Below, piece by piece: positions 15,637 to 55,164 of a stretch of 64,000 nt of DNA. The notes beneath the pieces are model-generated. The model ran no database searches and was not told the origin of the DNA. It worked only from the letters and a program-made list of their open reading frames with translations. The DNA is taken from contig JACQRC010000089.1 in assembly GCA_016206665.1 (NCBI GenBank), positions 8,393-72,392 on the forward strand, read 5' to 3'. Each line of letters starts with the position of its first letter. Position 1 is the first letter of the stretch. The DNA comes from Candidatus Omnitrophota bacterium (GTDB lineage: Bacteria; Omnitrophota; Gorgyraeia; Aquiviventales; JACQRC01). The position numbers were made by a program, and so were the translations under genes.

Positions 15637-15655
15637 TTGGCATGCCATCTGCTTC
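15637..15655 (+). promoter_or_regulatory. candidate sigma54 (-24/-12) promoter TTGGCAT-N5-CTGCT upstream of the EPS operon
   Basis: GG (15639-15640) and GC (15651-15652) are separated by exactly 10 nt. It lies in an AT-rich intergenic region 55 bp upstream of the MerR-like HTH gene. rpoN and an NtrC-type activator are encoded in the same locus. Confidence 0.4.
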
Positions 15656-15710
15656 TATGTCTGTCATAGACAGTCCAAGTCGAACTTATCTATTAGGAGG
15701 CGTTAGACAG

Positions 15711-15893
15711 ATGGTACCAGGCCGGTTGAGCATCACCGAGGTGGCGAGGCAGCTCAGCGTGACGACGAAGACCATCACGCGCTGGGAGAAGGCCGGTAAG
15801 ATCAAGTCGGCCAAGCGGGATTATCGCGGCTGGCGCGTCTATTCGCCGGAAGAGGTCCAGACGATCAAGAGTCTGGTGGAAACGGTCTATTAA
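15711..15893 (+). CDS. MerR/excisionase-family HTH DNA-binding protein
   Basis: LSITEVARQLSVTTKTITRWEKAGKI..RDYRGWRVYSPEEV matches the MerR/Xis-type HTH_17 pattern. The ORF-track start at 15642 (TTG) is probably too far upstream. Confidence 0.55.
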   Translation: MVPGRLSITEVARQLSVTTKTITRWEKAGKIKSAKRDYRGWRVYSPEEVQTIKSLVETVY

Positions 15894-15900
15894 GGTAGGG

Positions 15901-16896: not shown

Positions 16897-16898
16897 CC

Positions 16899-18419: not shown

Positions 18420-18430
18420 GCTGAGCCGCC

Positions 18431-19258: not shown

Positions 19259-19276
19259 GGAGGAATCTAAGGAGCC

Positions 19277-21360: not shown

Positions 21361-22805
21361 AGAACCTGAAATCGGCGACCCTCTCCGGCATCGCGTGGGT
21401 CTTGGTGGCGAGCGGCAGCCAGAAGGTGCTCGGCATCGCGACGACGATTGTTCTCGCCCGGTTGCTGAGCCCCGGCGACTTCGGCCTGTTTGCGCTGGCG
21501 TTCGTCCTCATCGACGGCTTCGGCCTCTTCAAGAGCCTTGGCGTCGATTTGGCCCTGATCCGGCAGCAGGAGCGGGTCGACGAGGCCGCCGATACCGCGT
21601 TCTGTCTCTTGCCGTTCATCGGCCTGTCCTTGTCGGCGCTGCTGTATGTCGCCGCGCCGTGGGCCGCGGTGCTGCTGCGCCATCCCGAGGTGGCGCCGCT
21701 CGTCCGGGCGCTCTCCGCCATCTTCGTCTTCTCGTGTCTGGCCCAAGTGCCGAACATCCTCATGCAGAAGCGGCTGTGGTTCTGGAAGCGCGGCCTCGCC
21801 GAGACCGTGGCGACAATCAGCTATGCGGCCGCCGCGATCGGCCTGGCCGTCGCCGGGTGCGGGGTCTGGAGTCTGGTCTATGCCTATCTGCTGAAAACGG
21901 CCGTCCATTTGGCGATGGTCTGGAGCTTTGCCGGCTGGCGGCCACGCTTGCAGTTCCGCTGGGAGCTGGCCGTGCAGATGTTGCGGTACGGCAAGTACAT
22001 CCTGGGCGGCAGTTTGCTGATGTTTGTGAAGAACAATGTCGACAACGTGATCGTGGGCGCGCTGTTGGGCACCACGGCCTTGGGCTATTACGCCCTCGCC
22101 TTCAATCTCTCAACCTTCACCTCGGCGCACGTCACGGGCCGGATGTTCGGCGTCCTCTTTCCGGCGTTTTCCCAGCTGCAGGATGATGATGCGGCGCTCT
22201 GCCGGGCCTTTCTCAAGGCCCTCAAGCTCATCGCCTTGATCTCCGTGCCGTTCGGCCTGGCGCTGGTCGTCCTGGCCCCGATGGTGCTGCAGACCATCTA
22301 TGGATCGCAGTGGCTGGCGGCGAGCGAGGTCCTGCGTTTGCTGGCGGTCGGCGGCATGCTGAAGGCCTTGGGCGGCAGCCAAAGTCCCGTCTTGCTCGCC
22401 AAGGGCCGCGCCCGGGTCGACTTCTGGGTCAACGTGGCCCACGTGGGCAGCTTTTTGGTATTCATCGTGCCGCTGACCCGCCTCTGGGGTCTGCGTGGCG
22501 CGGGGTATGTCGTCTTGCTCTCCGGGGGCGTCTCCTTCCTCGTCGGCATGTGGCGGGTCCGGCGGGTGCTGCCCGTCTCCTGGAGCGCCATCGCCACGGC
22601 GATGCGGCCGGCCCTCATCGGGTCGGTCCTGATGTTAGCGGTCTTTGAGGGCTTGACGCTGTGGCGGCAAGGGTTCACCGCCTGGCCATCGACGCTGTCG
22701 ATCCCGGGTTTTCTGACGATGGCGGCGGTCTCGGTCATCGCGTATGTGGGCGTGGTCGTGCTGATCGACCGCGAGATCCGGTTGGAAGTCCAGAGGATCG
22801 TCTGA
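21357..22805 (+). CDS. wzx: polysaccharide flippase (Wzx/MOP superfamily)
   Basis: ~12 predicted TMs and the N-terminal pattern SGIAWVLVASGSQKVLGIATTIVLARLL typical of Wzx flippases. ATGA overlap with the upstream gene. Confidence 0.7.
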   Translation: MKNLKSATLSGIAWVLVASGSQKVLGIATTIVLARLLSPGDFGLFALAFVLIDGFGLFKSLGVDLALIRQQERVDEAADTAFCLLPFIGLSLSALLYVAAPWAAVLLRHPEVAPLVRALSAIFVFSCLAQVPNILMQKRLWFWKRGLAETVATISYAAAAIGLAVAGCGVWSLVYAYLLKTAVHLAMVWSFAGWRPRLQFRWELAVQMLRYGKYILGGSLLMFVKNNVDNVIVGALLGTTALGYYALAFNLSTFTSAHVTGRMFGVLFPAFSQLQDDDAALCRAFLKALKLIALISVPFGLALVVLAPMVLQTIYGSQWLAASEVLRLLAVGGMLKALGGSQSPVLLAKGRARVDFWVNVAHVGSFLVFIVPLTRLWGLRGAGYVVLLSGGVSFLVGMWRVRRVLPVSWSAIATAMRPALIGSVLMLAVFEGLTLWRQGFTAWPSTLSIPGFLTMAAVSVIAYVGVVVLIDREIRLEVQRIV

Positions 22806-23722
22806 TGATGCGAGCGGCTGCCTGGTACCAACAGCAGTGGGACGCAGGGATCCGGCTCCAGCCGGAGCGGGACCTGGTCACGAATTTCCTGGATGAATTG
22901 GAGGCCTATTCGCGGCTGCCGCGGGCGGAGGTCGAAGCGCTCTTTTACCACGGCACCGAAGCCTTTGCCCAGGAATGGGAGCAGAAGTATAAAACCGACC
23001 CCCAGGCCCGGGTCAAGTTCTATGACGAGGCGCTGACGCACATCTTCTTTGTCATGCACAACAGCGCCCTGCGGACCCACTTGAGCAGCCCCTTGCTCTA
23101 TGTGTACGCCGCCGAGTGGGCCAGGCAATCGGGGGCGCGTCGCTATCTCGACTACGGCTCCGGCACCGGCTCTGGCGCCATCTTTTTCGCGCGCTCCAGC
23201 GTCGAGACGACCCTGGCCGACATCTCGAGCCGGATGCTGGACTTCGCGCGGTGGCGGCTGGAGCGGCGGGGGCTGGCCGCAAGCTACCTAGACGTCAAGA
23301 TGACGTCGTTGCCGCGCAACCACTACGACTTCATCACCTGCTTTCATGTGCTGCAGCACGTCGAGGACCCCATCGCGACCCTGCGCCAATTGCGCGAGGC
23401 GCTGACGGACGGGGGGATCCTCATCGTGAATGGGGCCTTGCGCAAGGATCCGGACCGACCCATGCAACCGGATCATGGCGGGGCACGGACGACGCGCCAC
23501 TACCGGTCGGTCGGGTTTCAAATCCTTTGGGAGCGGAACCGCGCGATGCGGCATCTGTCAAACACTAATCCGATCGCCCTGCAGAGGGTCGAGCGGCCGG
23601 CGGTCGTCAACGGCGCGTACCTGGCGTTTGATTCGCTGTTGGCCTCACCCGTGGGCGCGCTGACGGCTGCGGCGGCCCGCGCGGTCCGCGGACGGAAAGC
23701 CCGCACCGAGGTGGCGGCATGA
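22805..23722 (+). CDS. class I SAM-dependent methyltransferase
   Basis: Motif I YLDYGSGTGSGAIFFA, then acidic motif II and TCFHVLQHV post-I. Confidence 0.65.
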   Translation: MMRAAAWYQQQWDAGIRLQPERDLVTNFLDELEAYSRLPRAEVEALFYHGTEAFAQEWEQKYKTDPQARVKFYDEALTHIFFVMHNSALRTHLSSPLLYVYAAEWARQSGARRYLDYGSGTGSGAIFFARSSVETTLADISSRMLDFARWRLERRGLAASYLDVKMTSLPRNHYDFITCFHVLQHVEDPIATLRQLREALTDGGILIVNGALRKDPDRPMQPDHGGARTTRHYRSVGFQILWERNRAMRHLSNTNPIALQRVERPAVVNGAYLAFDSLLASPVGALTAAAARAVRGRKARTEVAA

Positions 23723-25422
23723 GCGCGACGACGGCCACCGCACATCCACGCTTCCTCGCCATCGGGCTTGACGGAGCCACCTGGACCATCCTGCGCCCCC
23801 TCATGGAGCAGGGACTCCTGCCGCATTTGCAACGGCTGGTCTCGGAGGGAGCGTCGGGGGAGTTACTCTCCACGGTGCCGGCCCACTCGGGGCCGGCTTG
23901 GACGACCTTCATGACCGGGGTCAACCCGGGCAAACACGGCGTCTTCGGTTTCACGACACGGCTGTTTAACGGGAAGGTCGGCAGCCGTCCGACCAGCTCC
24001 CGCGACATCCAAGCGCCCACCATCTTTCAGCTCCTCGGGGAGGCGGGCCAGGTCGTGGGTTCGGTCAACCTGCCCATGACCTACCCGCCGTTTCCCGTGA
24101 ACGGTTTTCTCATCTCCGATGACATGCTCCGACCGCCGCGTGGCGGGGAGTTCACCTATCCGACGGACGTCTTAGCCCGCATCGGCCTCGACCCGGCGTC
24201 CTACAACGAAGGCGGCGTCCGCACCGAGCGGCACGACGGCCGTGATGAGGCCCTCATCGAGGACTCCTTGCGCCGCATCGAGATCCGCGTGCAGGTCACC
24301 CTGCGGCTCATGGCCTCCTACGACTGGCGCTATCTTGTCGTGGTCTTTACCGAAACGGACCGGGTGCAGCACCTCTTGTGGCATGTGCTCGACCCCGCGC
24401 ATCCGCGGTATGAGGAGGCGCTGGTCCAGCGCCTGCGGCCGCGGCTGCTCGAGGTCTATCGCGCGGCGGACCGGGCGATCGGGGCGTTGGCGGCTCAGGC
24501 GGGGCCGTCGTCGGTCGTGACCGTGGTCTCGGACCACGGCTTCGGCCCCCAGAAGGCGCACCTCCTGGTCAACCACGTGCTGGCCCAGTCGGGGCTGCTC
24601 GCCTTCGCCCCTACGCCGGTCCTGCCGTGGCCGTACCGAGTGCGGGGTTTTCTCCACCGCCATGTGGCGCCGTATCGGTGGCTGAAGCGCGGGCGGCAGA
24701 TGGTAAACCACAACCGGCAACAACGCAAACCCGTCAAGCGGTACATCGGCTTCAACGCCACCCAGGAGGTGGCCAGCCGGATCGACTGGTCCCGTTCGTA
24801 CATTTACTCCTTCACGGAAGCCAGCGCAGGGGTCCACGTCAACTTGAAGGGTCGCGAGCCGCACGGGGTCGTCGAGCAGGGCGACCACTACGACCAGGTG
24901 CGCCGACAGGCGATTGCCGCGCTCTCACAGGTGCGCGATCCGCAAACGGGTGAGGTCGTGCCGATCAGCTGGCATCCCAAAGAGGCCTTCTACCACGGGC
25001 CGTGCACCGAGCACGCGCCCGACATCCTGTGCGTCAACGAGTCCGATTACAAGCCGAACAGTCAGATCGCGGAGAACCGACAGGAACTCTATCTGCCGAC
25101 GGTCTACACGACTGGCTGGCACCGGGCGGAGGGCATCGTCGTCCTCGCCGGGCCGGGCATCCGACGCGGGGTCGTGTTGGCCCCGTCATCGATCGCCGAC
25201 CTGGCACCGACCACATTACATTACCTCGGCTGTCCGGTCCCCGCCCATATGGATGGCCGCGTCCTCGAAGCGGCCCTGGAGCCGTCCTGGCTGGCGACGC
25301 ACCCGATTCAGCGAGGCCAGGCGGTCATCAAGGCACAGACCGCCGCGGCAGCCGAGGTCTACTCCCCCGAGGAGATGGCGAAGATCGAGCAGCGACTCGG
25401 GGATTTGGGCTATCTGGAGTAG
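23719..25422 (+). CDS. alkaline-phosphatase-superfamily enzyme (type I phosphodiesterase / nucleotide pyrophosphatase family)
   Basis: N-terminal FLAIGLDGATW metal-binding motif and overall AP-like layout. Confidence 0.6.
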   Translation: MSATTATAHPRFLAIGLDGATWTILRPLMEQGLLPHLQRLVSEGASGELLSTVPAHSGPAWTTFMTGVNPGKHGVFGFTTRLFNGKVGSRPTSSRDIQAPTIFQLLGEAGQVVGSVNLPMTYPPFPVNGFLISDDMLRPPRGGEFTYPTDVLARIGLDPASYNEGGVRTERHDGRDEALIEDSLRRIEIRVQVTLRLMASYDWRYLVVVFTETDRVQHLLWHVLDPAHPRYEEALVQRLRPRLLEVYRAADRAIGALAAQAGPSSVVTVVSDHGFGPQKAHLLVNHVLAQSGLLAFAPTPVLPWPYRVRGFLHRHVAPYRWLKRGRQMVNHNRQQRKPVKRYIGFNATQEVASRIDWSRSYIYSFTEASAGVHVNLKGREPHGVVEQGDHYDQVRRQAIAALSQVRDPQTGEVVPISWHPKEAFYHGPCTEHAPDILCVNESDYKPNSQIAENRQELYLPTVYTTGWHRAEGIVVLAGPGIRRGVVLAPSSIADLAPTTLHYLGCPVPAHMDGRVLEAALEPSWLATHPIQRGQAVIKAQTAAAAEVYSPEEMAKIEQRLGDLGYLE

Positions 25423-25424
25423 CG

Positions 25425-26804
25425 ATGAGACGACCGTCACGCGTCCTGGTCATTGGGTTGGATTGTCTGACGCCGCAGCTGGTCTTCGACCAGTGGCGTG
25501 GCGAGTTGCCCCATCTCAGCCGGCTGATGGCGCGGGGGCTGTGGGGTCGGCTCAAGACGACCGTTCCGCCGATTACGGTCCCGGCCTGGATGTCGATGAT
25601 GACGGGCCGCGACCCGGGGGAGCTGGGCTTCTATGGCTTTCGCAACCGGGCCGACCACTCCTATCACAAGCTGGCTTACGCCACCTCAGCCCTGGTGCAG
25701 GAGCCGACGGTGTGGGACCTCTTGTCGCGCGCGGGCAAGCACGTGGTCATCTTGGGCGTGCCGCAGACCTACCCGCCCAAGCCGGTGAACGGCTGCCTGG
25801 TGAGCTGTTTCCTCACGCCGGATACGAACGCCCAGTACACCTATCCCGCGGAGCTCAAGGAGGAGATTCGCGCCGTGGTCGGCGATTACGTGCTGGACGT
25901 CCACGACTTCCGCACCGACGACAAGCAACGGATCCTCGACCAGATCTACGACATGACCGCCAAGCGCTTCCGGCTGGCCCGGCACCTGATGCAAACGAAG
26001 CCGTGGGACTTTTTCATGGTGCATGAGATCGGCATCGACCGCATCCACCACGGCTTCTGGAAGTACATGGATGCCACCCATCCCAAGCACGAGCCGGGCA
26101 ATCCGTACCAGGATGCGATCCTGCGCTACTACCAGTTTGTGGACCAACAGGTGGGCGAGCTCATCGCCCTCTCCGGCGACGAGACGGCCGTCCTGATCGT
26201 CTCCGACCATGGAGCGAAGCGGATGCTGGGCGGTATTTGCTTCAACGACTGGCTCATCCGCCAGGGCTATCTCCGCCTGAAGACGATGCCGAGTCAGCCC
26301 ACACCCCTCGAGAAGCTGGAGGTGGATTGGACGAAAACGCGCGTCTGGGGGGCGGGGGGTTATTACGGCAGGGTCTTCCTCAACGTGAAAGGCCGCGAGC
26401 CGCAGGGCCTCATCGAGCCGTCGGAGTCCGAGGCCTTCCGGGACCGGTTGATCCGCGAGATCGAGGCCATTCCCGATCATGCAGGGCGGCGGCTGGCGAC
26501 GCATGTCTACAAGCCGGAGCAGATTTACCGTGCGTGCCGGGGAGTGGCACCCGACCTCATCATCTACTTTGACGATCTGGAATGGCGGTCGGTCGGCTCC
26601 GTGGGATACGACTCGCTCTACACGTTCGACAACGATACCGGTCCCGATGACGCCAACCACGCCCAGCATGGAATCTGCGTGATGCGGGATAGTGACCGGC
26701 AGGGCTGCCGGGAGAATCTAACCATCTACGACATCGCTCCAACGATCTTGGACCTGTTTGGCCTGCCGATTCCGGCAGCGATGCAGGGCCGGGTCATTGC
26801 TTAG
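25425..26804 (+). CDS. alkaline-phosphatase-superfamily enzyme, paralog of the upstream gene
   Basis: VLVIGLDCLTP.. N-terminal motif and HGFWKYMD.. region. Shares its block layout with 23719-25422. Confidence 0.6.
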   Translation: MRRPSRVLVIGLDCLTPQLVFDQWRGELPHLSRLMARGLWGRLKTTVPPITVPAWMSMMTGRDPGELGFYGFRNRADHSYHKLAYATSALVQEPTVWDLLSRAGKHVVILGVPQTYPPKPVNGCLVSCFLTPDTNAQYTYPAELKEEIRAVVGDYVLDVHDFRTDDKQRILDQIYDMTAKRFRLARHLMQTKPWDFFMVHEIGIDRIHHGFWKYMDATHPKHEPGNPYQDAILRYYQFVDQQVGELIALSGDETAVLIVSDHGAKRMLGGICFNDWLIRQGYLRLKTMPSQPTPLEKLEVDWTKTRVWGAGGYYGRVFLNVKGREPQGLIEPSESEAFRDRLIREIEAIPDHAGRRLATHVYKPEQIYRACRGVAPDLIIYFDDLEWRSVGSVGYDSLYTFDNDTGPDDANHAQHGICVMRDSDRQGCRENLTIYDIAPTILDLFGLPIPAAMQGRVIA

Positions 26805-26821
26805 AGGTTAAGGAGGCTGCC

Positions 26822-27379: not shown

Positions 27380-27392
27380 GGACAGCCGAGCG

Positions 27393-43446: not shown

Positions 43447-43465
43447 TTGGCACAGAACGTGCTGA
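43447..43465 (+). promoter_or_regulatory. sigma54 promoter TTGGCAC-N5-GTGCT upstream of the PEP-CTERM gene
   Basis: GG at 43449-43450 and GC at 43461-43462 with a 10-nt gap. The first seven bases are a perfect TTGGCAC. It is nearly identical to 46293-46311. Confidence 0.6.
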
Positions 43466-44385: not shown

Positions 44386-44505
44386 GGTGCGGCATGGCGA
44401 TCGGGTTGGCCCTGATGACGATGGTGCTGACCGCCTGGTGCCTCGTGCACTGTCATCGGTACGATCATTAACACTGACATCAACGGAGTAGCTTAGGAAA
44501 ACGAG

Positions 44506-45210: not shown

Positions 45211-45286
45211 CGGCTTTCAGAAGAGCGTGGTGCAGCATGCTTGCGGGGCGCGTGATCGTCGCAAGCCACATCAAGGAGGCAAGGCA

Positions 45287-45970
45287 ATGAGACGATGGAT
45301 GGCAGTGCTTGGCGTCGGTCTGGCGGCGGCCGTGGCCGTAGCCTCTCCGGCGTGGGCCGTTCCGACCATTGACGGGTCGGCCACCACCTTTGCGGGTGAG
45401 TGGGATGGGTTTATCCTGCAGGCCTTCGACCCGGACGAGGTGGCCATTCCGGATGGCTACGACTTCTCGGAGCTCCGGATCATCCAGGAGGCCAGCGGCG
45501 GGGCGAGTGACGGGTTGTATGTCCTGTTCGATTTGCACGGGGTGCCCACCTTCACCTCACTGGACCCCATCTTCCCCTTCGACCCCGTCACGTACTCGAT
45601 CGGGATGGATTTCGATGGGGATGGGCTATTCACGAGCGCGGTCGACCGGAGCATCGTCTACACGTCGAGCGGGGTGCTGGTCTTCGATGGCACCGGTACA
45701 CCCATCGTCGGCGCTCCCGGTTCGGCGCTGGGATCGGTGGTCGAATTGTACATCCCGAAGAGCATGCTGGCCGGTGGGGCCTTGCCGGTGAGCGGCACGT
45801 TCGGCATGTTTGCCTCGCTGGACAATGGTGGTGCGCCGCCGGACGATTTCATTCCGGACTTCGATCTGGTGCATCCTATTCCTGAGCCTGGCAGCGCGCT
45901 GCTGTTTGGGTTCGGGCTGATGGGCGCTTTCTTACGCCGCCAGCGGCGTTACCCGTCCACGGTCGCCTAA
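45287..45970 (+). CDS. PEP-CTERM sorting-domain protein
   Basis: AGGAGG RBS, then signal peptide. C-terminal PIPEPGSALLFGFGLMGAFLRRQRR. Confidence 0.8.
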   Translation: MRRWMAVLGVGLAAAVAVASPAWAVPTIDGSATTFAGEWDGFILQAFDPDEVAIPDGYDFSELRIIQEASGGASDGLYVLFDLHGVPTFTSLDPIFPFDPVTYSIGMDFDGDGLFTSAVDRSIVYTSSGVLVFDGTGTPIVGAPGSALGSVVELYIPKSMLAGGALPVSGTFGMFASLDNGGAPPDDFIPDFDLVHPIPEPGSALLFGFGLMGAFLRRQRRYPSTVA

Positions 45971-46086: not shown

Positions 46087-46292
46087 AAATTGACCGATAG
46101 CAGTTGTCTTAAGTCAACAGATTGTCTTGAACCATCAGCAATTTGGTGAAAAGCCACAACACTTCTCCAGACCAGATGGTTTGCTGGGCGTCTATGCGGA
46201 GAGCATCGCACGCAGCCAGGGCGGCAGGTTCATAGAGGAGATGAATGAAAAAGTGAACGCTGGGCGGAGAAATTCCTCATTATGGCGGAAAC

Positions 46293-46311
46293 TTGGTACA
46301 GAACCTGCTTT
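46293..46311 (+). promoter_or_regulatory. sigma54 promoter TTGGTAC-N5-CTGCT upstream of the third PEP-CTERM gene
   Basis: GG at 46295-46296 and GC at 46307-46308, 10-nt gap. cTTGGTACAGAACCTGCTtt versus gTTGGCACAGAACGTGCTga at 43447: 16 of 18 identical. Confidence 0.55.
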
Positions 46312-46354: not shown

Positions 46355-46687
46355 ATGAAAGAGGGCTGGATGGCGCAGGGGAAGTTGCTCGTGTTAGGAG
46401 TTACCTGCCTGTTCGCAGCGACCGGTTGCGGCAGTAGTGGCGGTGGGCTGTCTGGTTTGTTGGGCTCGGGCGGATCTTTCGCAGGCTTGTTTGACGGTGG
46501 CAATAGCGGTGGCGGTGACCAACCATCTCCCATCGTGGTCGACTCTGTGCCTAACCCCGAACCGATAGGCATCAGCCCACTCGCTACGGTGTCCAACCCT
46601 GAACCGGCGAGCGCAGCGCTCTTCGGCGGTGGCTTGGCTGGCATGGCGTGGTGGCGGCGGCGGCGAAAGGCCGGCAAGCGCGCCTGA
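46355..46687 (+). CDS. small glycine-rich PEP-CTERM protein with lipoprotein-type signal
   Basis: GGAGG RBS. LFAATGCGSS lipobox; C-terminal SNPEPASAALFGGGLAGMAWWRRRRK. Confidence 0.75.
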   Translation: MKEGWMAQGKLLVLGVTCLFAATGCGSSGGGLSGLLGSGGSFAGLFDGGNSGGGDQPSPIVVDSVPNPEPIGISPLATVSNPEPASAALFGGGLAGMAWWRRRRKAGKRA

Positions 46688-46743
46688 CGCCTCGTTAGCG
46701 TTCGTTCCGCCCGCACACAACTGAAGCAGGAGGGGGCTCGTCC

Positions 46744-48471
46744 ATGCGAACCTTGTGGCAGGCGGCACAACAGACCGTCAAACTGCTCGGCCCACACCGC
46801 AAACTGTGGCTGCCGTTTCTCTTGGTAGCCATGGTCGAAGTGGGCGGTCTGTTGCTGCTCTGGCTGGCCCCCCAACCTCCCTTTACCCGCCTGCTCGCCC
46901 CGCCCATCCGTTTCTTCTTCGGTGACCGCATCCTCCATTACCCCTGGCATCTGTGGTTCCTCTACCATGCCATGAAACACACCCATATGGCCGCCTCGCT
47001 CCTGGTCGGTGCCTTCATGACCGGCATCGCCTGCGTCATGGTAGGGCAGTCGCATGCCGATCAGCCGTTGTCGCTGCGCGCCGCCCTGGCGAGCCGGCAG
47101 GTGCGCTACGGGACGGTCGTGCTGCTGTGGCTGCTCCTCTGGGGCATGGGGCGCGGCGCAATGACGGCGGTGACGCGGTACGCGCCGTCGAGCCAGTGGG
47201 CGCTGTGGTTGGGCGTGGGGCTGACGGTGCTGATCCAGACCCTATTCATCTACGCCATTCCCGCCGCGGTCTATGACCGCGTGAACTGGTGGCGGGCCCT
47301 GGGACGGAGCGTCCGGGAAACATGCCGCGATCCCCTGGCGGCCCTCGTCGTGGTCGGCGTGCCAAGCGCGGCCATGATCGGCTTCATCAGTTTTGCCCCG
47401 CCCGCCCGCGTCTCCCAGTGGATGTTGCAGACGGCGCCGGAGGTGGCGATTCCGCTCATTGCGGCACGGCTGCTCGTGTGGCTCGTCGCGGATGTCGTGG
47501 CCACGGTCGGTGCGGCCCATCTCTGGTGGATCCATCGGGCGGCACAGCAGCCGGCGGCCGCCGCGGTCCGGACCGTCGGCCGGCTCACGCGCCCCGCACC
47601 CATCGTCCCGCCCATCGCGGCGCTGCCGCTGATACTGACGCTGCTGACCGCGAACGGCTGCAGCGCTACCTACAACGGCGAGCGGTTGTTTTGGAAGGCG
47701 CAGCAGTTCAGCGCCCCCATCGGCAAGGATCCCAGCAAGGCCACCGCTGCGCAATTCGCGCAAGCCGTGACACTCCATGAAGCCGTCATCCGCGCGGCCC
47801 AGGGAACCAGCTGGGCGGCGCGGGCCCAGTTTGCCATCGGCTCGCTCCAGGCGCTGCAACAACATTATCCCCAGGCGCGGGAGGCGTACGCACTGGTCGT
47901 GCAGAATTACCCCCAGCATCCCGATTACGCGTTGAGCGCGCGGCTCGCAGCCGCCAGGACCTACGAGGCGGAGCAGTTGTGGGAGGAGGCGGCCAAGATG
48001 TATTACGAACTGGCCGACTACCATCCGTGGAGCCGGGTGGGGCTTGAGGCTCTCATCTACGTCGCGGCCCACTATGAGCGCGACGGCAAGCGCGAGCAGG
48101 CCGAGCACATCTACGAACGGGCCGTGCGCCACTACCTCAAGCGGCTCGCCGAAGCGCCCAGCCGCGAATTGGCCTCCCAAATTCGTGTCTACCTCTCCAT
48201 GGCGTACCAACGGTTGGAGAAGTGGGAGGAGGCAGCCAAGACTCTGGAAGAATTGGCCCAACAGTCCGTGGGTATTAACCGACCGCTCGTGCTCCTGACC
48301 CTGGCGTCGCTCTATCAGACAAAGATCCATCATCCACAACAGGCGGCGGGCATCTACCTGAAACTGAGCGAAGAGTTTCCGGACCATCCCTTAGCCCAGA
48401 CCGCCAAGACGCAACTCGAACGTCTGGATGCACCGGCGGCGCCGACCGCCGCACCAGCCCGCGCCCAGTGA
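46744..48471 (+). CDS. polytopic membrane domain fused to a C-terminal TPR-repeat domain (exosortase-locus accessory protein)
   Basis: ~8 predicted TMs in the first ~290 aa. An internal lipobox-like LTANGCS is followed by TPR-like repeats (AREAYALVVQNYPQHPDYALSARLAAARTYEAEQ..). Stop overlaps the exosortase start. Confidence 0.5.
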   Translation: MRTLWQAAQQTVKLLGPHRKLWLPFLLVAMVEVGGLLLLWLAPQPPFTRLLAPPIRFFFGDRILHYPWHLWFLYHAMKHTHMAASLLVGAFMTGIACVMVGQSHADQPLSLRAALASRQVRYGTVVLLWLLLWGMGRGAMTAVTRYAPSSQWALWLGVGLTVLIQTLFIYAIPAAVYDRVNWWRALGRSVRETCRDPLAALVVVGVPSAAMIGFISFAPPARVSQWMLQTAPEVAIPLIAARLLVWLVADVVATVGAAHLWWIHRAAQQPAAAAVRTVGRLTRPAPIVPPIAALPLILTLLTANGCSATYNGERLFWKAQQFSAPIGKDPSKATAAQFAQAVTLHEAVIRAAQGTSWAARAQFAIGSLQALQQHYPQAREAYALVVQNYPQHPDYALSARLAAARTYEAEQLWEEAAKMYYELADYHPWSRVGLEALIYVAAHYERDGKREQAEHIYERAVRHYLKRLAEAPSRELASQIRVYLSMAYQRLEKWEEAAKTLEELAQQSVGINRPLVLLTLASLYQTKIHHPQQAAGIYLKLSEEFPDHPLAQTAKTQLERLDAPAAPTAAPARAQ

Positions 48472-49331
48472 TGCCCACCCTGCGCCGTCCGCTTCCACGA
48501 GCCCTCCTGCGTGGACTACCGTTTCTGCTGCTGTGGCTGCCCCTCTTCTGGCCCACGTGGCGCTGGATGGCGGAGCGCTTTGCCGCGCACGATTCGTTCT
48601 ATTCTCACGGCTGGTTGGTGCCTCTGGCCAGCGCGTGGCTCGTCTGGCAGCGTCGGCAGATCCTGCAGCGCCTGCCGCAAAGACCGAGCGCAGCCGGCTT
48701 GGGATTGTTAATCCCGGCGCTGGCCATCCATGTGCTGGCCAGCTGGTGGCAGGTGGGCTTCGCATCGGGGTTGGCGATGGTGGCGGCGCTCTGGGGCCTG
48801 GTCTGGACGCTGTGGGGCGGACGGGTCATATGGGCGCTGCGGTTTCCCCTGCTCTTTTTACTGTTCATGGTGCCCCTGCCAGGCGTCCTGCTCATCGCGA
48901 CCAGCTTCAGAATGAAACTCGTCGCAGCCACGCTGGCGACGCACGCCCTGCGTCTGCTGGGATTATCTGCGGTCCAGGCCGGCTCGACGATTCACCTGCC
49001 GGGCGTCTCGGTCATCGTCGATGACACCTGCAGCGGCCTGCGTTCCCTCATCAGCCTTGGCGCGCTGGCGATCCTCTGGACATCGTGGATGCCGGCGAAG
49101 TCGCGGACCTGGCAGAAGGTTGCGGTCTGCGCCGCCTCGATGCCGATCGCTCTCGTGGCGAATATGGTCCGGATCCTCGTCCTCGTGCTGCTGGCGGCCA
49201 TCTATGGACCCGAGGCGGCGGAGGGCTTTATCCACTACGGCTCCGGCATCGTTGTCTTTGGTCTCTCGGTCATCCTCCTCATGTGGTTGAGCCGGCGGCT
49301 GGCGCCGTCATCCTATGCCGTCACCGGCTAA
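48468..49331 (+). CDS. exosortase (XrtA/EpsH family transpeptidase)
   Basis: 8-TM protein with the conserved exosortase Cys (DDTCSGLRSL) and Arg (NMVRI) motifs. Confidence 0.8.
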   Translation: MMPTLRRPLPRALLRGLPFLLLWLPLFWPTWRWMAERFAAHDSFYSHGWLVPLASAWLVWQRRQILQRLPQRPSAAGLGLLIPALAIHVLASWWQVGFASGLAMVAALWGLVWTLWGGRVIWALRFPLLFLLFMVPLPGVLLIATSFRMKLVAATLATHALRLLGLSAVQAGSTIHLPGVSVIVDDTCSGLRSLISLGALAILWTSWMPAKSRTWQKVAVCAASMPIALVANMVRILVLVLLAAIYGPEAAEGFIHYGSGIVVFGLSVILLMWLSRRLAPSSYAVTG

Positions 49332-49341
49332 GGGGGCAGCG

Positions 49342-49959
49342 ATGGTCAGCTGGCACACCCGGCTCAGGCAGCCACCGAGCGTGGCGTGGCTGTGCCTCGG
49401 GCTCGCTACATGGCTGGTGTGGGCCAGGCCGATGACGACCCACAGCACCGGCCGGGCCACTCCGGTGCCAGCCACCATTGGTGCGTGGGTGGGCATCTCG
49501 ATACCGGCGGACCAGCGCGTCATCGAGATCCTGGAAACGGATGACGTCGACCTCCTGGAGTACCGCCATGGTGCCGAGGCACCGGTGTGGCTCGCGCGGG
49601 TGGCAGGCTTCGGGAATCGGGCGGCGTTCCATCCGCCGGAGCTCTGTTATATCGGCAGCCATTACGAGGTGCTGGAGCGCGGGACGATGACGGTGCGGGT
49701 TGGGGGAGCGCCCCGTCGGCTGATGCGGCTGGTGCTCGGCCAGGACCACAAGCGGTTTGAGGCGTGGTACTGGTTTACCGCCAACGGTCGCGTCACCGAG
49801 AATTACTATCGGCAGCAGCTCTGGCTGCTCCTCGATGCCATGCGCGGCCGGCCGCTCGCCGGCACCCTCGTGCGGATTTCCACGCCACTCGACGATGCCG
49901 GACGCAGCCGGGAGCGATTGCTGACCTTCGCCCAGGCGCTGGCCGCCCCCGCACCCTGA
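49342..49959 (+). CDS. EpsI-family exosortase-associated protein
   Basis: Small N-terminally anchored protein immediately downstream of the exosortase, with the typical architecture. GGGGG RBS before ATG 49342; an alternative start lies at 49315. Confidence 0.5.
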   Translation: MVSWHTRLRQPPSVAWLCLGLATWLVWARPMTTHSTGRATPVPATIGAWVGISIPADQRVIEILETDDVDLLEYRHGAEAPVWLARVAGFGNRAAFHPPELCYIGSHYEVLERGTMTVRVGGAPRRLMRLVLGQDHKRFEAWYWFTANGRVTENYYRQQLWLLLDAMRGRPLAGTLVRISTPLDDAGRSRERLLTFAQALAAPAP

Positions 49960-49997
49960 CATGAGCAGCGCAAAGTTGTTACCAGCCAAATTTCCGC

Positions 49998-50026
49998 TTG
50001 ACACCCCTCCAGAGGCATTGTATGGT
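49998..50026 (+). promoter_or_regulatory. sigma70 promoter TTGACA-N17-TATGGT upstream of the sensor kinase
   Basis: Perfect -35 at 49998-50003, 17-nt spacer, then the -10 at 50021-50026. Confidence 0.5.
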
Positions 50027-50098
50027 GGTACTCCCTTTTCTTACCGTCCTATCATACCGCGTCGTTCACGAGCACCAGTCGTCCGTCATCGGCAGCCC

Positions 50099-51178
50099 AT
50101 GGAGCGCAACGGCATCGAATCCTGGGAGTCGTGTTTACAGGTATTGCCCTGCGGAGCCCTGGTGGTCGACCAGAACGGCATCGTCGAGGCGGCCAACCCC
50201 GCCGCGCTGACCATGCTCTCGGTCGACGCTGGCCGGCTGCTGCACCAGCCGCTCCTCACGGCCATCCCAGCCTGGCGGACGACACCGCTCGCCGAGCAGT
50301 GGTCCGACGGGATCGCGCCGCACACCGCCAACGGCGCCGTCGAACAGATCGAGGTACAGGTCCCCCAAGACCGGTGGGTGCAGGTGTGCGTCAGCCGGAT
50401 CCCGAACGGCACCCCACCGCAGCGACTCCTGCTCGTGCTCACCGACATCACCGACCTCGTCAAACTCCGTCAGCGGCTGCGATGGACGGAATACCAGGCC
50501 TCCATCGGCAAACTCGCCCGCGGCATTGCCCACGAACTCAACAATCCCCTCGATGGGGTGCTGCGGTACACCCACCTCTCGCTCGAGCAGTTGCGGGAGG
50601 ACGAACCGGTCCGGGAATATCTGGTCCATATCAAAGAAGGGCTGGACCGGATGGTGCGGGCGGTGCGGGCCTTCCTCGAGTTTGCCCGCCAGGCCACGAG
50701 TCCCATCAGCCGGGCCGTCAACCTCAACCGCCTCATTGACGATGCCCTCCTGCTCGTCCAGCATCGGGCCAAGTTCCTGCAGATTCGGGTGATGAAACAG
50801 TTGGACGAACAGCTGCCCGAGGTACCCGACGGCGGATTGCAGCACGCGCTCGTCAACCTCATCAAGAATGCCTTTGATGCCATGCCGCGGGGAGGCACGC
50901 TGACCGTCGCGACCCGCCAGGCCGACGGGGTCGTGGAGGTCGAGGTGGCCGATACCGGCTGCGGCATTGCGGAGGAGGTGCGTCCCCGTCTGTTTGAACC
51001 GTTCTTTTCCACCAAACCGATTCATCAGGGCAACGGCCTCGGTCTCATCATCGCCAAGGAATCTGTGGAGCGGTCCGGCGGCACGCTGAGCTTCACGAGC
51101 CGGGTCGGCATCGGCACGACCTTCACGGTGCGCATTCCACTCGCTGCGCAGGAGATCTACCCGAATGGAACCCCGTAG
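50099..51178 (+). CDS. cytoplasmic PAS-domain sensor histidine kinase
   Basis: H-box LARGIAHELNNPL, then N, G1 (DTGCGI) and G2 (GNGLGL) boxes. No TM. An upstream extension to 49961 is possible but runs over the promoter. Confidence 0.75.
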   Translation: MERNGIESWESCLQVLPCGALVVDQNGIVEAANPAALTMLSVDAGRLLHQPLLTAIPAWRTTPLAEQWSDGIAPHTANGAVEQIEVQVPQDRWVQVCVSRIPNGTPPQRLLLVLTDITDLVKLRQRLRWTEYQASIGKLARGIAHELNNPLDGVLRYTHLSLEQLREDEPVREYLVHIKEGLDRMVRAVRAFLEFARQATSPISRAVNLNRLIDDALLLVQHRAKFLQIRVMKQLDEQLPEVPDGGLQHALVNLIKNAFDAMPRGGTLTVATRQADGVVEVEVADTGCGIAEEVRPRLFEPFFSTKPIHQGNGLGLIIAKESVERSGGTLSFTSRVGIGTTFTVRIPLAAQEIYPNGTP

Positions 51179-52556
51179 CCGGATATTGATGGTCGATGAC
51201 GATCCCTTGATCCGGGGGTCCCTCTATGAGCTGTTGCGGCGCCGCCACTTCGACGTCGAGACGGCCGCCGACGGGACCGAGGCCTTAGAGCGCCTCAAGC
51301 AGAAATCCTTCCGGTTGGTGATCACCGACCTGCGGATGCCGGCCATCGATGGGATGAGCCTCCTGGCGCACATCCGCAGCGAATATCCCGACGTGAGCGT
51401 CGTCCTCATCACCGGTTTTGGGACGATCGCGTCGGCTGTGGAGGCGATCCGGCAGGGGGCCTTCGATTATTTAACCAAGCCGGTCCAACCCGAGGAGCTC
51501 GAGGCCACCATTCAGCGCGCCATCGACGCGCCCGGCTCATCCACCGATGAGGATCCGTTCAGCGGCGTCATCGGTCAGCATCCGAGCATCCAGGCGATCT
51601 GTGAGGTGGTGCGGTCGCTCGCCATCAGTCCGGCGACCGTGCTGTTGGAAGGGGAGAGCGGTACGGGCAAGCGGGTCATCGCGTACGCCATTCACCGCGC
51701 CGACCCCAAGCGCAAAACGCAACCGTTCATTGAGGTGAGTTGCGGGGCGTTGCCGGAGACCCTGTTGGAGAGCGAGCTGTTTGGGCATGTGCGCGGGGCC
51801 TTTACCGGGGCGATCCGCGACAAGCAAGGGCGGTTTGAGCTGGCCGGCGGCGGGACCATCCTGCTCGACGAAATCGATACCCTGTCGCCCGCGCTGCAGG
51901 TGAAGCTCCTGCGGGTCCTGCAGGAGCGGGTCTTTGAGCGGGTGGGGGACACGCGTACGCTCAAGGTGGATGTGCGAGTGATTGCCGCGACCAACCGTCC
52001 CCTGGCGGAGTTGGTGCGGGAGGGCAAGTTTCGTGAAGACCTCTACTACCGTGTCAACGTCATTGCGCTGCGCCTGCCCGCGTTGCGCGAGCGGCAGAGC
52101 GACTTGCCGCTGCTCATCGACCACTTCATCAAGCGCAGCGCGCACGCGATGAGCAAGACGATTACCGGCATCGATGAGGCGGCGCTGGCGGTCCTGCTGC
52201 GCTACCCCTGGCCGGGGAATATCCGGGAACTCGAGAACGTGGTCGAGCGCGCGGTGGTGCTGTCGCGCCGGACACGTTTGGGGGTGGAGGACCTGCCGGA
52301 CCCCGTGCGGGCCTCCGCCGCCACCACCACAGCATCGGCAGAGCCGGGGTCTCCCGCGCCGACCGCGGCGTCGGAGACCGGTCAGCCCACAGAGCTGAAG
52401 GCGGCGCTCAAGATACCGGAGCGCGAACTCATTTTGAAGGTCCTGGCGGAGGTGCGCTGGAACCGGTCGGAAGCCGCGCAGCGGTTAGGCATCCACCGTT
52501 CGACCCTCTACCACAAGATGCGCCAACTGGATATTGACACGTCGTTATCATCGTAG
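51165..52556 (+). CDS. sigma54-dependent response regulator (NtrC family; REC, AAA+, Fis-HTH)
   Basis: REC Asp (LVITDLRMP), Walker A GESGTGKR and the sigma54-interaction GAFTGA motif. ESELFGH motif. C-terminal HTH (RSEAAQRLGIHRSTLYHKM). Confidence 0.85.
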   Translation: MEPRSRILMVDDDPLIRGSLYELLRRRHFDVETAADGTEALERLKQKSFRLVITDLRMPAIDGMSLLAHIRSEYPDVSVVLITGFGTIASAVEAIRQGAFDYLTKPVQPEELEATIQRAIDAPGSSTDEDPFSGVIGQHPSIQAICEVVRSLAISPATVLLEGESGTGKRVIAYAIHRADPKRKTQPFIEVSCGALPETLLESELFGHVRGAFTGAIRDKQGRFELAGGGTILLDEIDTLSPALQVKLLRVLQERVFERVGDTRTLKVDVRVIAATNRPLAELVREGKFREDLYYRVNVIALRLPALRERQSDLPLLIDHFIKRSAHAMSKTITGIDEAALAVLLRYPWPGNIRELENVVERAVVLSRRTRLGVEDLPDPVRASAATTTASAEPGSPAPTAASETGQPTELKAALKIPERELILKVLAEVRWNRSEAAQRLGIHRSTLYHKMRQLDIDTSLSS

Positions 52557-52589
52557 CGCGCGTGCGCACGCGCCTCTACTGCACATCTC

Positions 52590-53666
52590 ATGCCTCATCC
52601 TGAGATCCTTATGGGCAGTTCTGACACCGACGGGCGACCGCAACTCTTAGCCTTGGTCGAGGCGGCCCGCTGGCAGCGGCTGCAGGGCCACTTTGCCAAC
52701 GTGTTAGGCGTGGGGCTGCGCACCGTCAATCCCTCCCGCGAGTTGCTCGTTGAGCCCAGCTGGCCCACCCCGCTACAGGACGCGACGGCACTCCACCTGC
52801 TCCAGGTCGGCGAGGAAGTGGAGCGGCTCGTCTCCGGCGCGGAGCCGCCGCGCGATCCACTGACCATCACGACCCCGCTGGGGCTGTCCTACACCGCCGT
52901 GCCCATCCGGGTCATTCCCGAGCAGATGCTCGCGTACTGGATCATCGGACCGGCGATGGTGGGCGCGCGCCCCACCGCCGCGGAGTTGGCCGAGCGCGCG
53001 GCCAGCCTCAACCTCGACGCCCACCGCCTCTGGCCGCTCCTGCTGACCCTCAAGCCATACACCTTTGCGGGATTCCAATCCGTCATCCACCTGATCGGCG
53101 AAGTGAGCGATTCGTTGGTGCAGCTCGCCTACCAGGCCAAGTGGCTGCCGACCGTCTTGCCGACGACGAGCCGCGTGAATCAAGCGATCCTCGCCTATTA
53201 CGTCGAGCGGATTTTTCATTCCCTGTTAGGGGCCGCCACCCTGGCGACGCAGGCCGAGGGCGGGTCCGTGATGGCGTACGATCAGGCGCGGGACGGCTTT
53301 CGCATCAGCGTCGCCCAGGGCCTGCCCGAGGAGATCATCAAGTCGACCCTGGTGAAACGGGGGCAGGGTATTGCGGGGTTGGTGGCGCAAGGGCAGAGGA
53401 TGGTCATCATCGATGAGGAGCACGCCGATCCGCAGGTGCGCCCGCGGATGCACCGGCACGACCTGGTGTCTTCCTTGGTGGCTCCGGTGGTCCCCGAGGC
53501 CTCCACGACGCCCGTGGCGGTCTTGAGCCTGCGCACCGCCAACCGGGCGCGGCCGTTCACCCGCACCGATCTCGACGTGGTCCAGCACCTGTTAGCGCTG
53601 ACGGGGATGGCGTTGGGGAATGTGGGACCGATCTTTACCCGAGCGCCGTCGGCGTCGGGTTCGTGA
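52590..53666 (+). CDS. GAF-domain sensory protein
   Basis: C-terminal GAF-like fold (GIAGLVAQGQRMVIIDE..). Its 3' end overlaps the convergent rpoN 3' end. Confidence 0.45.
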   Translation: MPHPEILMGSSDTDGRPQLLALVEAARWQRLQGHFANVLGVGLRTVNPSRELLVEPSWPTPLQDATALHLLQVGEEVERLVSGAEPPRDPLTITTPLGLSYTAVPIRVIPEQMLAYWIIGPAMVGARPTAAELAERAASLNLDAHRLWPLLLTLKPYTFAGFQSVIHLIGEVSDSLVQLAYQAKWLPTVLPTTSRVNQAILAYYVERIFHSLLGAATLATQAEGGSVMAYDQARDGFRISVAQGLPEEIIKSTLVKRGQGIAGLVAQGQRMVIIDEEHADPQVRPRMHRHDLVSSLVAPVVPEASTTPVAVLSLRTANRARPFTRTDLDVVQHLLALTGMALGNVGPIFTRAPSASGS

Positions 53667-55164
53667 GGGGCGCCGCACCGACCGCGGGTGCCGACGCCTG
53701 GCCTACCTGAGCGGGTTCCTGCCGTTGCCTACCTGACCACACGGCCGCCCGGCGCCGCAGATGCGCTGGCAGCATCTTAAGGGCCGTGCGGTACTTGGCC
53801 ACCGTTCGTCTTGCCACCGCCATGCCCTGCTGTCGCAGCAACGTAGTCAGCGCCTCGTCACTGTACGGATGGCGGGGGTCTTCCTCCGCGAGGCAGGTAG
53901 CGATCGCGGCCTTGATGGAGGCATCCGAGAGTGAGGCGTGGGCCTCGGCTTGCGGCACACGGCTGGCAAAGAAGCGTTCCATGGGCAGGATGCCGAAGGG
54001 CGTGGCCATCAATTTGCCGGCGATCGCGCGGCCCACGGTGGACGGATGCCGGCCCACTCGCTGAGCGACCTCGGCTTGCGTGAGCGGTCGCAGGGCGGCA
54101 AACCCCTGCTCCAAAAACGCCCGCTGTTCCTCAATGAGGCAGCGGGCGATGGCGAGCAGGGTGGTGTGCCGTTGTTCAATCGCGCGCAGGAGCCAGATGG
54201 CCTGCCGCAGCCGTTCTTTGACGAAGAGCTTGGCGTCTACGGGGGCGCGGGGGTCGTGCAGCATCTGCCGGTAGGTCCGGCTCACCCGCAACCGGGGCAG
54301 CTCCTCGTCATAGAGCTCCACTTCATAGCCGTCCTCGACCTGACGGATGGCTAGATCCGGCACCCATGGGCGTTCCGCCGGCGCGCTGGTGGCGCGATAC
54401 GGTTTAGGGTTCAACTGGCGGATAAGATGACAGGCGGCCTCCATCTCCTCCAGCGAGCGACCGCTGCGGGCGGCGAGGTGCTTCAGGTCATGGCGCAGGA
54501 AGAGAGTCCAGTGCTCCCGCACGACGGCAGCCGCCAGACTGTCGGCCAGGCCCCGGTGGCGCAACTGGATGAGCAGGCATTCCTGGATGGTGCGCGCGCC
54601 GACGCCGGACGGTTCAAGGGTGTGCAGGATCTGAAGCAGGCGCTCGGCCTCGCCGAGCGGTATCTGAGCCTGGCGGGCGATCTCCTCCAGAGGGGCGGAC
54701 AGGTAGCCATCTTCATTGCACTGCTCGATGAGCAGCTCGCCCATCTGTCGCTCGGCCTCGCCGAGCGGCAGACACCCTAACTGAAGCCGCAGCAGTTCGT
54801 GGAGCGAGGGCGACGGCATCGGCTGAGCCTCCAGTCGCCCCTGTCTCGGATCCTCTGTCTGACGCTGCACGGGCGTGTCGTTGGCGGCCAAGGCTTCCAT
54901 GAGATTGTCATCAAGATCCCCAAACCGGTCCTCGTGCTCATCGCCGGCCGGCGTATCGCTGTGCGGATCCTCCACCGAGTCGGAGGTCAGCGTCGTCGAG
55001 GCTCCCTCCTCCATCTCTAACAGCGGATTTTCCTCGATTTGATGCTCGAGGAAGGCCTTCAAGTCCAGCAGGGGCAACTGGAGCACGTCGAGTGCCAGGC
55101 GTACGGATGGCGTGACCGTCAGACGCTGCAGTTGGCGAGTGGTTTGGACTGTGGATAGCTTCAT
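53635..55164 (-). CDS. rpoN: RNA polymerase sigma-54 factor RpoN
   Basis: N-terminal region I (MKLSTVQTTRQLQRLTVTPSVRLALDVLQLPLLDL), core-binding region and C-terminal RpoN box ARRTVAKYR. Confidence 0.9.
   Translation of the reverse strand: MKLSTVQTTRQLQRLTVTPSVRLALDVLQLPLLDLKAFLEHQIEENPLLEMEEGASTTLTSDSVEDPHSDTPAGDEHEDRFGDLDDNLMEALAANDTPVQRQTEDPRQGRLEAQPMPSPSLHELLRLQLGCLPLGEAERQMGELLIEQCNEDGYLSAPLEEIARQAQIPLGEAERLLQILHTLEPSGVGARTIQECLLIQLRHRGLADSLAAAVVREHWTLFLRHDLKHLAARSGRSLEEMEAACHLIRQLNPKPYRATSAPAERPWVPDLAIRQVEDGYEVELYDEELPRLRVSRTYRQMLHDPRAPVDAKLFVKERLRQAIWLLRAIEQRHTTLLAIARCLIEEQRAFLEQGFAALRPLTQAEVAQRVGRHPSTVGRAIAGKLMATPFGILPMERFFASRVPQAEAHASLSDASIKAAIATCLAEEDPRHPYSDEALTTLLRQQGMAVARRTVAKYRTALKMLPAHLRRRAAVWSGRQRQEPAQVGQASAPAVGAAPLTNPTPTALG

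Follow-up and report, generated by a model that had tools for sequence, protein, structure and literature searches.

A probable sigma-54 regulon of exosortase, PEP-CTERM and polysaccharide genes with a composite rpoN promoter in an Omnitrophota bacterium

The DNA analyzed in this work (hereafter the window) is a 64-kb stretch of contig JACQRC010000089.1 from a Candidatus Omnitrophota bacterium. It contains a 40-kb polysaccharide/protein-sorting locus in which polysaccharide genes, PEP-CTERM genes and an exosortase occur together with a histidine kinase, an NtrC-type activator and rpoN, the gene for sigma-54. This locus is very probably switched on by sigma-54 via three conserved enhancer-type promoters, P0, P1 and P2, because orthologous promoters, dyads and AT-rich elements are conserved among its relatives. 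The rpoN gene has a sigma-54 site of a different kind, nested within its own promoter. An enhancer-dependent sigma-54 regulon combined with occlusion of the rpoN promoter is the model that we consider probable for this bacterium. The locus comprises the following genes and operons.

15711-15893 (+): MerR-type helix-turn-helix protein of 60 amino acids (Pfam MerR_1, 42 bits), first gene of the polysaccharide operon
15901-43246 (+): polysaccharide export, assembly and modification operon of 22 genes and ~27 kb, with gaps of at most 44 bp (NCBIfam and Pfam)
43567-45970 (+): P1 operon, consisting of PEP-CTERM 1, a priming sugar transferase and PEP-CTERM 2
43567-44385 (+): PEP-CTERM protein 1 (TIGR02595, 22-23 bits against a cut-off of 16)
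44506-45210 (+): priming sugar transferase (TIGR03025, 285 bits against a cut-off of 295.55; Pfam Bac_transf on orthologues)
45287-45970 (+): PEP-CTERM protein 2 (TIGR02595, 22-23 bits against a cut-off of 16)
46355-53666 (+): P2 operon, encoding PEP-CTERM, TPR, exosortase, EpsI, soluble PAS kinase, NtrC-type activator and PocR-GAF proteins
46355-46687 (+): small PEP-CTERM protein of 110 amino acids, first gene of the P2 operon
46744-48471 (+): TPR protein, matched only by the YbgF, BamD and PorW models
52590-53666 (+): PocR-GAF protein without an output domain, conserved in every locus
53635-55164 (-): rpoN (TIGR02395, 377.2 bits against a cut-off of 277.4), convergent with the P2 operon

The polysaccharide operon encodes a Wza-like exporter, a PCP protein, an ATPase, a tyrosine kinase, a Wzx flippase, glycosyltransferases and an APS kinase, as well as a ligase-like protein, a GH123-like protein, a deacetylase and, as its last gene, a GT2 protein. 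The order of the MerR-like gene, Wza, PCP, ATPase and tyrosine kinase is kept in the related loci L122-L124. Two plus-strand segments, 22661-28598 and 39043-41322, include the APS kinase, two proteins of the phosphodiesterase/sulfatase superfamily, a SAM methyltransferase, an ATP-grasp protein and the GH123-like protein; these enzymes hint at a sulfated or otherwise modified polymer.

Accessory markers of the XrtA type are present overall. They include EpsI (86.6 bits against a cut-off of 42.8), the PEP-CTERM proteins, the XrtA-system chain-length determinant (TIGR03007, 298.7 bits against 278.9) and the XrtA-system ATPase, which at 313 bits falls just under the TIGR03015 cut-off of 324.5. The exosortase itself passed the general model TIGR02602 (163.8 bits against 105.6) and remained below the XrtA cut-off (TIGR03109, 181.9 bits against 208). 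The match of the priming transferase to TIGR03025 covers only the C-terminal transferase domain (profile positions 253-443).

Among the regulatory proteins, the kinase has the architecture PAS-HisKA-HATPase without a hydrophobic segment (maximum Kyte-Doolittle value 1.17), and the activator combines receiver, AAA+ and HTH_8 domains, with GAFTGA at residue 211 and a Sigma54_activat domain scoring 221 bits. RpoN carries the RpoN box, ARRTVAKYR, at residue 451. The family scans thus agree with the gene content read from the letters in a first-pass annotation of this stretch (PAS kinase, GAFTGA activator, GAF sensor, RpoN and PEP-CTERM proteins), and its description of the kinase as soluble holds as well. 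When the PocR-GAF profile was compared with PDB, only generic GAF structures were retrieved, giving no functional lead. Its GAF part shows weak similarity (E ~1e-3) to the corresponding domain of PtsP (EI-Ntr; 3ci6 and 3trc). The PtsP family is tied elsewhere to rpoN operons.

P0, P1 and P2 share one design, in which an upstream 18-bp dyad TGTYG-N8-CRACA and an AT-rich element TAAC-N17-GTTA precede the core TGGYAY-N6-TGCT. One to three dyads lie ~130-190 bp upstream of each core, and the AT-rich element ~35-60 bp upstream. GG and GC stand 10 bp apart within TGGCAC-N5-TTGCW-like cores upstream of genes, the spacing that defines a sigma-54 core.

15500-15517 (+): candidate upstream activator site of P0, dyad TGTTGCGACTTTTCAACA, matching TGTYB-N8-VRACA, 138 bp 5' of the -24 element
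15575-15608 (+): AT-rich element of P0, inverted repeat GTAAC...GTTAT, with GTTAY at -34 and 67% A+T between -80 and -25
15637-15653 (+): sigma-54 -24/-12 element of P0, TTGGCATGCCATCTGCT, strict motif; found 73-78 bp 5' of the MerR-like gene in L122, L123 and L124
15659-15675 (+): palindrome G(A/T)CTGTC-ATA-GACAGTC, directly 3' of the P0 -12 element, in four of four loci (window and L122-L124)
43311-43328 (+): candidate upstream activator site of P1, dyad TGTCGGAGTTCTGCAACA, 137 bp 5' of the -24 element
43411-43415 (+): GTTAC arm of the P1 AT-rich element, at -37
43447-43463 (+): sigma-54 -24/-12 element of P1, gTTGGCACAGAACGTGCTga = TTGGCACAGAACGTGCT; orthologue 5' of the Bac_transf gene in nine relatives
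46102-46161 (+): candidate enhancer of P2, three 9/10 dyads at -192, -171 and -150 with 21-bp phasing
46293-46309 (+): sigma-54 -24/-12 element of P2, cTTGGTACAGAACCTGCTtt = TTGGTACAGAACCTGCT, strict motif

The three -24/-12 elements lie exactly at the positions first proposed for them, 43447, 46293 and 15637, and the motif upstream of the PEP-CTERM genes at 43447 and 46293 is conserved in relatives. Altogether, the window holds seven matches to TGGYAY-N6-TGCW, where dinucleotide shuffles predict 0.73, and four to the stricter TTGGYAY-N6-TGCT, where 0.06 are expected. The fourth strict match, at 55216-55200 (-) upstream of rpoN, had been overlooked. In contrast, the loose consensus TGGCAC-N5-TTGCW with up to three mismatches is not enriched (235 window matches against 273 expected). 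The expectation that the motif would exceed background is therefore borne out for its specific form and not for the loose one, and what carries the signal is the specific motif, together with where it lies and how well it is conserved, rather than the raw number of consensus matches. Three further -24/-12-like matches lie outside the promoters described here.

3294-3309 (+): upstream of the type III methylase
33939-33954 (+): intragenic, inside the ligase-like gene
55082-55097 (-): inside rpoN

All three lack an upstream dyad, an AT-rich element and GTTAY, and are probably chance matches or silent binding sites. No sigma-54 motif was found in the gap between PEP-CTERM 1 and the transferase (44386-44505).

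In 37 non-redundant related loci, totaling 374 kb, the motif has 47 matches against 4.2 expected, and 43 of these occupy promoter positions orthologous or analogous to the window sites. Twenty matches lie upstream of rpoN (window equivalent 55216-55200 on the minus strand), nine upstream of the priming transferase gene (Bac_transf; window equivalent P1, 43447), eight upstream of the small gene heading the TPR-exosortase operon (window equivalent P2, 46293) and three upstream of the MerR-like gene heading Wza, PCP, ATPase and kinase (window equivalent P0, 15637). A further three precede other small or PEP-CTERM genes and have no window equivalent, and the remaining four are intragenic, which is about the chance expectation. 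The orthologous promoters recur although the proteins of the relatives are only 40-70% identical, and this supports the original proposal that the locus is under sigma-54 control.

The promoter classes differ slightly in their cores. Across the window and its relatives (alignments A2 and A3), all P2-class cores read TGGTAY, whereas those of all other classes read TGGCAY; L084 and L121 share the exact P2 16-mer TGGTACAGAACCTGCT with the window. The -12 element is mostly CTGCT in the activated promoters and (G/A)TGCT in the rpoN promoters.

Enhancer-like repeats, which the first-pass annotation had suggested looking for upstream of the promoters, are present at all three. The dyad pattern has five matches in the window, two of which are located exactly 137-138 bp 5' of sigma-54 cores (15500 for P0 at -138 and 43311 for P1 at -137), and P2 is preceded by its three 9/10 matches. 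Most P0, P1 and P2 promoters of the relatives have exact 18-bp or 9/10 dyads between -129 and -171. For P0, dyads lie between -129 and -140 in L122 and L124, and L123 has a 9/10 match at -158; the orthologous P1 promoters have them at -135 to -168. The -171/-150 pair of P2 also occurs in L101 and L121, and the P1 dyads of L119 lie at -162 and -141; such a 21-bp spacing is as expected for dimers on one helix face. These distances are typical of upstream activator sites (~100-200 bp), and the dyads are candidate sites by sequence.

The stretch between dyad and core contains 56-93% A+T in the activated promoters and 45% in the window P2. Inside it lies the inverted repeat (R)TAAC-N17-GTTA(Y); of the 23 activated promoters, 15 carry its GTTAY arm at -34 to -40. 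This arrangement resembles an IHF-type bending site, and the AT-rich element of P0 is a possible IHF-like site.

The conserved palindrome at P0, which in the window reads GACTGTC-ATA-GACAGTC, may be an autoregulatory operator for the MerR-like product of the first gene. Folding of the P0 leader RNA is no better than that of shuffled sequences (z = -0.73), which makes a DNA site, and not an RNA element, the likelier reading of the palindrome; an Rfam scan of the whole window gave no match. An ECF sigma factor pair is located 5' of the MerR-like gene in L122 and L124.

The block containing rpoN, PocR-GAF, activator, kinase, EpsI and exosortase shows a strict, phylum-wide linkage. RpoN shares 40-55% identity with its nearest relatives; those that carry a name all come from Omnitrophica metagenome-assembled genomes. 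In eight of eight sampled RpoN homologues, rpoN is convergent with PocR-GAF, regulator, PAS kinase, EpsI, exosortase and TPR genes. A scan of metagenomes with the PocR-GAF alignment added 34 further loci, whose gene order was mapped by tblastn; the order of the P2 operon is identical in every metagenomic locus that reaches far enough. A divergent cluster of PilZ, FeeM-type N-acyl amino acid synthase and ThiF genes (19547-21407 in L084, 14325-15997 in L120, and on the P0003 contig) adjoins the exosortase operon in several relatives and is absent from the window. A search of genomic contigs with the response regulator returned only generic NtrC-family genes from many phyla, at most 46% identical.

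On its far side, rpoN has neighbors that differ by genome (VIT1, FKBP, GH3, DUF4340 or mraZ), and in the window a divergent gene for a small secreted protein of 129 amino acids is followed by nuo. The canonical context lptB-rpoN-hpf-ptsN is absent in the window and in the eight relatives, where rpoN stands alone. The description of this gene as the locus's own rpoN needs qualifying; judged by the same-position orthologues in all eight sampled homologues, it is the lineage's orthologous copy next to the exosortase cassette, not an additional, locus-specific paralogue, and it may be the only sigma-54 gene of the lineage. Likewise, the 3' ends of rpoN and the PocR-GAF gene do overlap by 32 bp in the window, in agreement with an independent gene call on L081, but this overlap is not conserved, as the relatives have gaps of 15-150 bp.

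The sigma-54 site of rpoN differs from P0-P2 in its surroundings. The strict match at 55216-55200 (-) lies 35 bp upstream of the rpoN start codon, inside a composite element.

55195-55223 (-): composite rpoN promoter, TTGACC (-35), tt, TGGCACGATTTATGC, TAACCT (-10)

Here the -24/-12 element is nested within the 17-bp spacer of a sigma-70-type promoter, and its TGC doubles as the TG of an extended -10 element. The nested TGGCAY-N6-TGCT was found in all 23 loci that contain the rpoN 5' end, including the window. In alignment A2 (22 loci), TGGCA, TGCT and the first T of the upstream TTG are invariant, and conservation reaches at least 90% for the second T of TTG and for the A and last T of TAnnnT; the common form of the promoter is TTGnnn-N2-TGGCAY-N5-RTGC-TATAGT. 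When scanned for sigma-70 promoters, 15 of 21 rpoN promoters passed, in one shared register and all with the extended -10 TG, whereas only four of 23 activated promoters passed, in other registers and without TG.

None of 20 rpoN promoters has an exact dyad within -320 to +300, a GTTAY arm at -34 to -40 or an AT-rich stretch, and their -80 to -25 regions contain 25-56% A+T. Another element enriched 5' of rpoN in a subset of genomes (L084, L085, L099, L101, L113, L115 and others), AAATCAA...CCTAGC, was considered as an enhancer and rejected. The opposite strand of CCTAGC...AAATCAA forms a TTGATTT-N17-TAGGnT promoter, which belongs to the divergent neighbor (FKBP-type where read, in L099 and L115). 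A palindrome bound by a dimeric factor was also rejected as an explanation of the rpoN site; in A2, the bases at positions 6 and 12 change without regard to each other, with dyad-preserving combinations in eight of 22 loci against ~10 expected by chance. A nested sigma-54 site without an enhancer suggests that rpoN is negatively autoregulated through occlusion of its sigma-70 promoter. The gene would be read from the sigma-70-type promoter, and sigma-54 holoenzyme parked on the spacer as a closed complex would block sigma-70 RNA polymerase, resulting in homeostasis of sigma-54.

Alternatively, the rpoN site could be an activated promoter, at which the induced activator fires from solution or from a distant site and the sigma-70 promoter provides only basal expression. 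The core is as good as those of P0-P2 throughout the 23 loci, and the activator, whose gene lies ~3 kb away, is expected to induce its own synthesis. A precedent is known in rhizobia, where the prxS-rpoN2 operon is under sigma-54/NifA control (PMC3538637). However, the 20 rpoN promoters lack an exact dyad and an AT-rich or GTTAY element, features that occur together at most activated promoters, and the -35 TTG and TGnTAnnnT are conserved as strongly as the sigma-54 bases, although a pure sigma-54 promoter would not need them. We therefore regard activation of rpoN as improbable and favor autoregulation by occlusion.

Sigma-54 is known to repress overlapping sigma-70 promoters (Bonocora 2015, PMC4591121; PMC6755734); such repression is also attributed to Zafar 2014 as cited in PMC4591121. 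According to the citations given in PMC3538637, rpoN of R. leguminosarum is negatively autoregulated, and in some bacteria rpoN expression drops as sigma-54 rises. The rpoN promoter described here resembles these cases in that a sigma-54 site overlaps a sigma-70 promoter, where a closed complex can repress. It differs in that the site lies exactly within the 17-bp spacer, shares TGC with the extended -10 element and is retained in at least 20 diverged genomes, and the effect is a predicted one. In the NifA-activated prxS-rpoN2 operon of Rhizobium etli and Mesorhizobium loti (PMC3538637), the sigma-54 gene similarly resides inside the island it serves and has its own sigma-54 promoter upstream. 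That gene, however, is an island-borne second paralogue with an enhancer, whereas the present rpoN is predicted to be the orthologous copy and no enhancer is seen.

Combined with the activated promoters, these features lead us to propose the following circuit. The soluble PAS kinase, perhaps assisted by PocR-GAF as a second sensor, would respond to a cytoplasmic signal and phosphorylate the GAFTGA activator. The activator would then bind the dyads and, via bent intervening DNA, remodel the sigma-54 holoenzyme at P0, P1 and P2. P0 would drive the 27-kb polysaccharide operon, P1 the PEP-CTERM/priming-transferase operon and P2 the exosortase operon. Since the latter encodes kinase, activator and PocR-GAF, this response is expected to be self-amplifying through positive feedback.

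Several points weigh against this model. Every promoter in it is predicted from sequence, and the dyads are linked to the activator by co-occurrence. In the window, the P2 dyads are only 9/10 matches and P2 has no GTTAY element, while no recognizable dyad was found at the P1 promoter of L113, the P2 promoter of L105 and the Px promoter of L122. In addition, the sigma-70 scan misses the rpoN promoter of the window, whose -10 hexamer TAACCT is weak, and the sigma-70 reading of this promoter consequently relies on the relatives.

The dyads leave room for a second alternative, in which P0-P2 are genuine sigma-54 promoters driven by an enhancer-binding protein from elsewhere, and the kinase and regulator of the locus control something else. 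NtrC-family regulators are numerous in bacteria, with hundreds of homologues retrieved here, and binding of the regulator to the dyads is a sequence-based prediction. Nevertheless, regulator, kinase and PocR-GAF genes are inside the P2 operon in every locus examined and co-occur with the dyad promoters across proteins only 40-70% identical; the 64-kb window contains no activator gene beyond the NtrC-type regulator of the locus. Control from outside the locus thus appears quite unlikely, and the NtrC-type regulator encoded in the P2 operon is the favored candidate for the dyad-binding protein.

PEP-CTERM genes are RpoN-dependent in Proteobacteria (PMC1569441, PMC9850573). Haft et al. 2006 (PMC1569441) described PrsK/PrsR/PrsT, together with -24/-12 elements and an activator motif 5' of PEP-CTERM genes, in Proteobacteria only, and noted that different, as yet undiscovered regulators must operate in other phyla. 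Xia et al. 2023 (PMC9850573) reported that transcription of pepA in Aquincola tertiaricarbonis is RpoN1-dependent and starts from a TGGCAC/CTGCTT promoter. The locus could be a plain member of the PrsK/PrsR/PrsT system. The logic is similar, with an NtrC-type sigma-54 response regulator, a histidine kinase and a TPR protein linked to an exosortase locus, and with PEP-CTERM genes whose long non-coding upstream regions contain an activator motif and a -24/-12 element (PMC1569441); the -12 element is CTGCT, as at Aquincola pepA (PMC9850573).

However, all three proteins fail the Prs family models. The regulator scores 371.2 bits on TIGR02915 (PrsR) against a cut-off of 502.6, the kinase scores 85.7 bits on TIGR02916 (PrsK) against 300 and matches only the catalytic end (profile positions 534-679), and the TPR protein has no PrsT match (TIGR02917) at E <= 1e-3. 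A soluble PAS kinase replaces the membrane domain of PrsK. In place of the 17-nt motif of that system, which ends in TTTACA and lies ~63 nt upstream of the -24/-12 element, the 18-bp TGTYG-N8-CRACA is found at about -140; no TTTACA occurs within 100 bp upstream of the P0, P1 and P2 cores. PocR-GAF and rpoN are added to the block, and the organism belongs to Omnitrophota rather than Proteobacteria. Plain membership is hence very unlikely. In agreement with the initial view of a system reminiscent of PrsK/PrsR and not identical to it, the locus is, as judged by these models and motifs, a non-proteobacterial variant of a known principle, which is predicted to work like PrsK/PrsR/PrsT without being a member.

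Aquincola pepA shares with the window a PEP-CTERM gene, a TGGCAC...CTGCTT promoter, RpoN and a floc/polysaccharide biology. It differs in that the evidence is experimental and the regulators are PrsK/PrsR, whereas the present evidence is comparative and the promoter also heads polysaccharide and exosortase operons. The best-scoring models are AtoS for the kinase (209 bits) and AtoC (450.6 bits) and NtrC (412.8 bits) for the regulator, all of them under the equivalog cut-offs of 646, 714 and 559, respectively. The AtoS/AtoC and NtrB/NtrC pairs have the identical domain architecture but differ in gene context and in the DNA site predicted here. In the collection of papers that was searched, none links Omnitrophota with sigma-54, PEP-CTERM or exosortase regulation.

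That the -24/-12-like strings are chance occurrences or sites of an unrelated dimeric transcription factor is the least credible explanation: the loose scan is unenriched, the matches at 3294, 33939 and 55082 look non-functional and some rpoN sites contain the short dyad GCAC-N5-GTGC, but the specific motif is tenfold enriched and orthologously placed, the independence of positions 6 and 12 argues against a palindrome-binding factor, and one core is shared by four promoter classes that are otherwise wholly different.

As a more far-reaching and tentative idea, which we consider rather doubtful, sigma-54 of Omnitrophota could be an essentially dedicated factor for the exosortase/PEP-CTERM/polysaccharide surface program, with a single synteny-locked rpoN, self-amplification through P2, a nested operator steadying sigma-54 and PocR-GAF as a new third component. 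If so, the dedicated sigma-54 cassette would constitute a compact bistable-plus-homeostatic switch of a kind not described for any phylum.

Independently of this idea, the locus provides a concrete candidate for a PEP-CTERM sigma-54 regulatory system in a non-proteobacterial phylum, specified to the level of individual cis-elements. Two features are of most interest: rpoN is linked to the exosortase cassette across the phylum, and its promoter has a sigma-54 site nested in a sigma-70 spacer, a geometry that opens the occlusion model of sigma-factor autoregulation to direct tests in vitro. Omnitrophota have not been cultured; their cells are often tiny and may depend on hosts. If it were known what turns on the polysaccharide and protein layer at their surface, their metatranscriptomes would be easier to interpret, and so would the way in which these cells attach.

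Outside the locus, the window contains a defense island on the plus strand (3444-12202), in which the third-position GC is 0.47-0.57, compared to 0.8-0.9 elsewhere. The island includes a type III restriction-modification pair (MTase_III, 270 bits, and REase_III), a type VI retron pair (HTH_VI at 10117-10410 and RT_VI at 10404-11333) and a PolB-like 3'-5' exonuclease (11555-12202). At 12383-13028 (+), a VapC toxin (NF047959, 97.8 bits against a cut-off of 80) is overlapped by the preceding open reading frame of 82 amino acids, and the two probably form a VapBC toxin-antitoxin pair.

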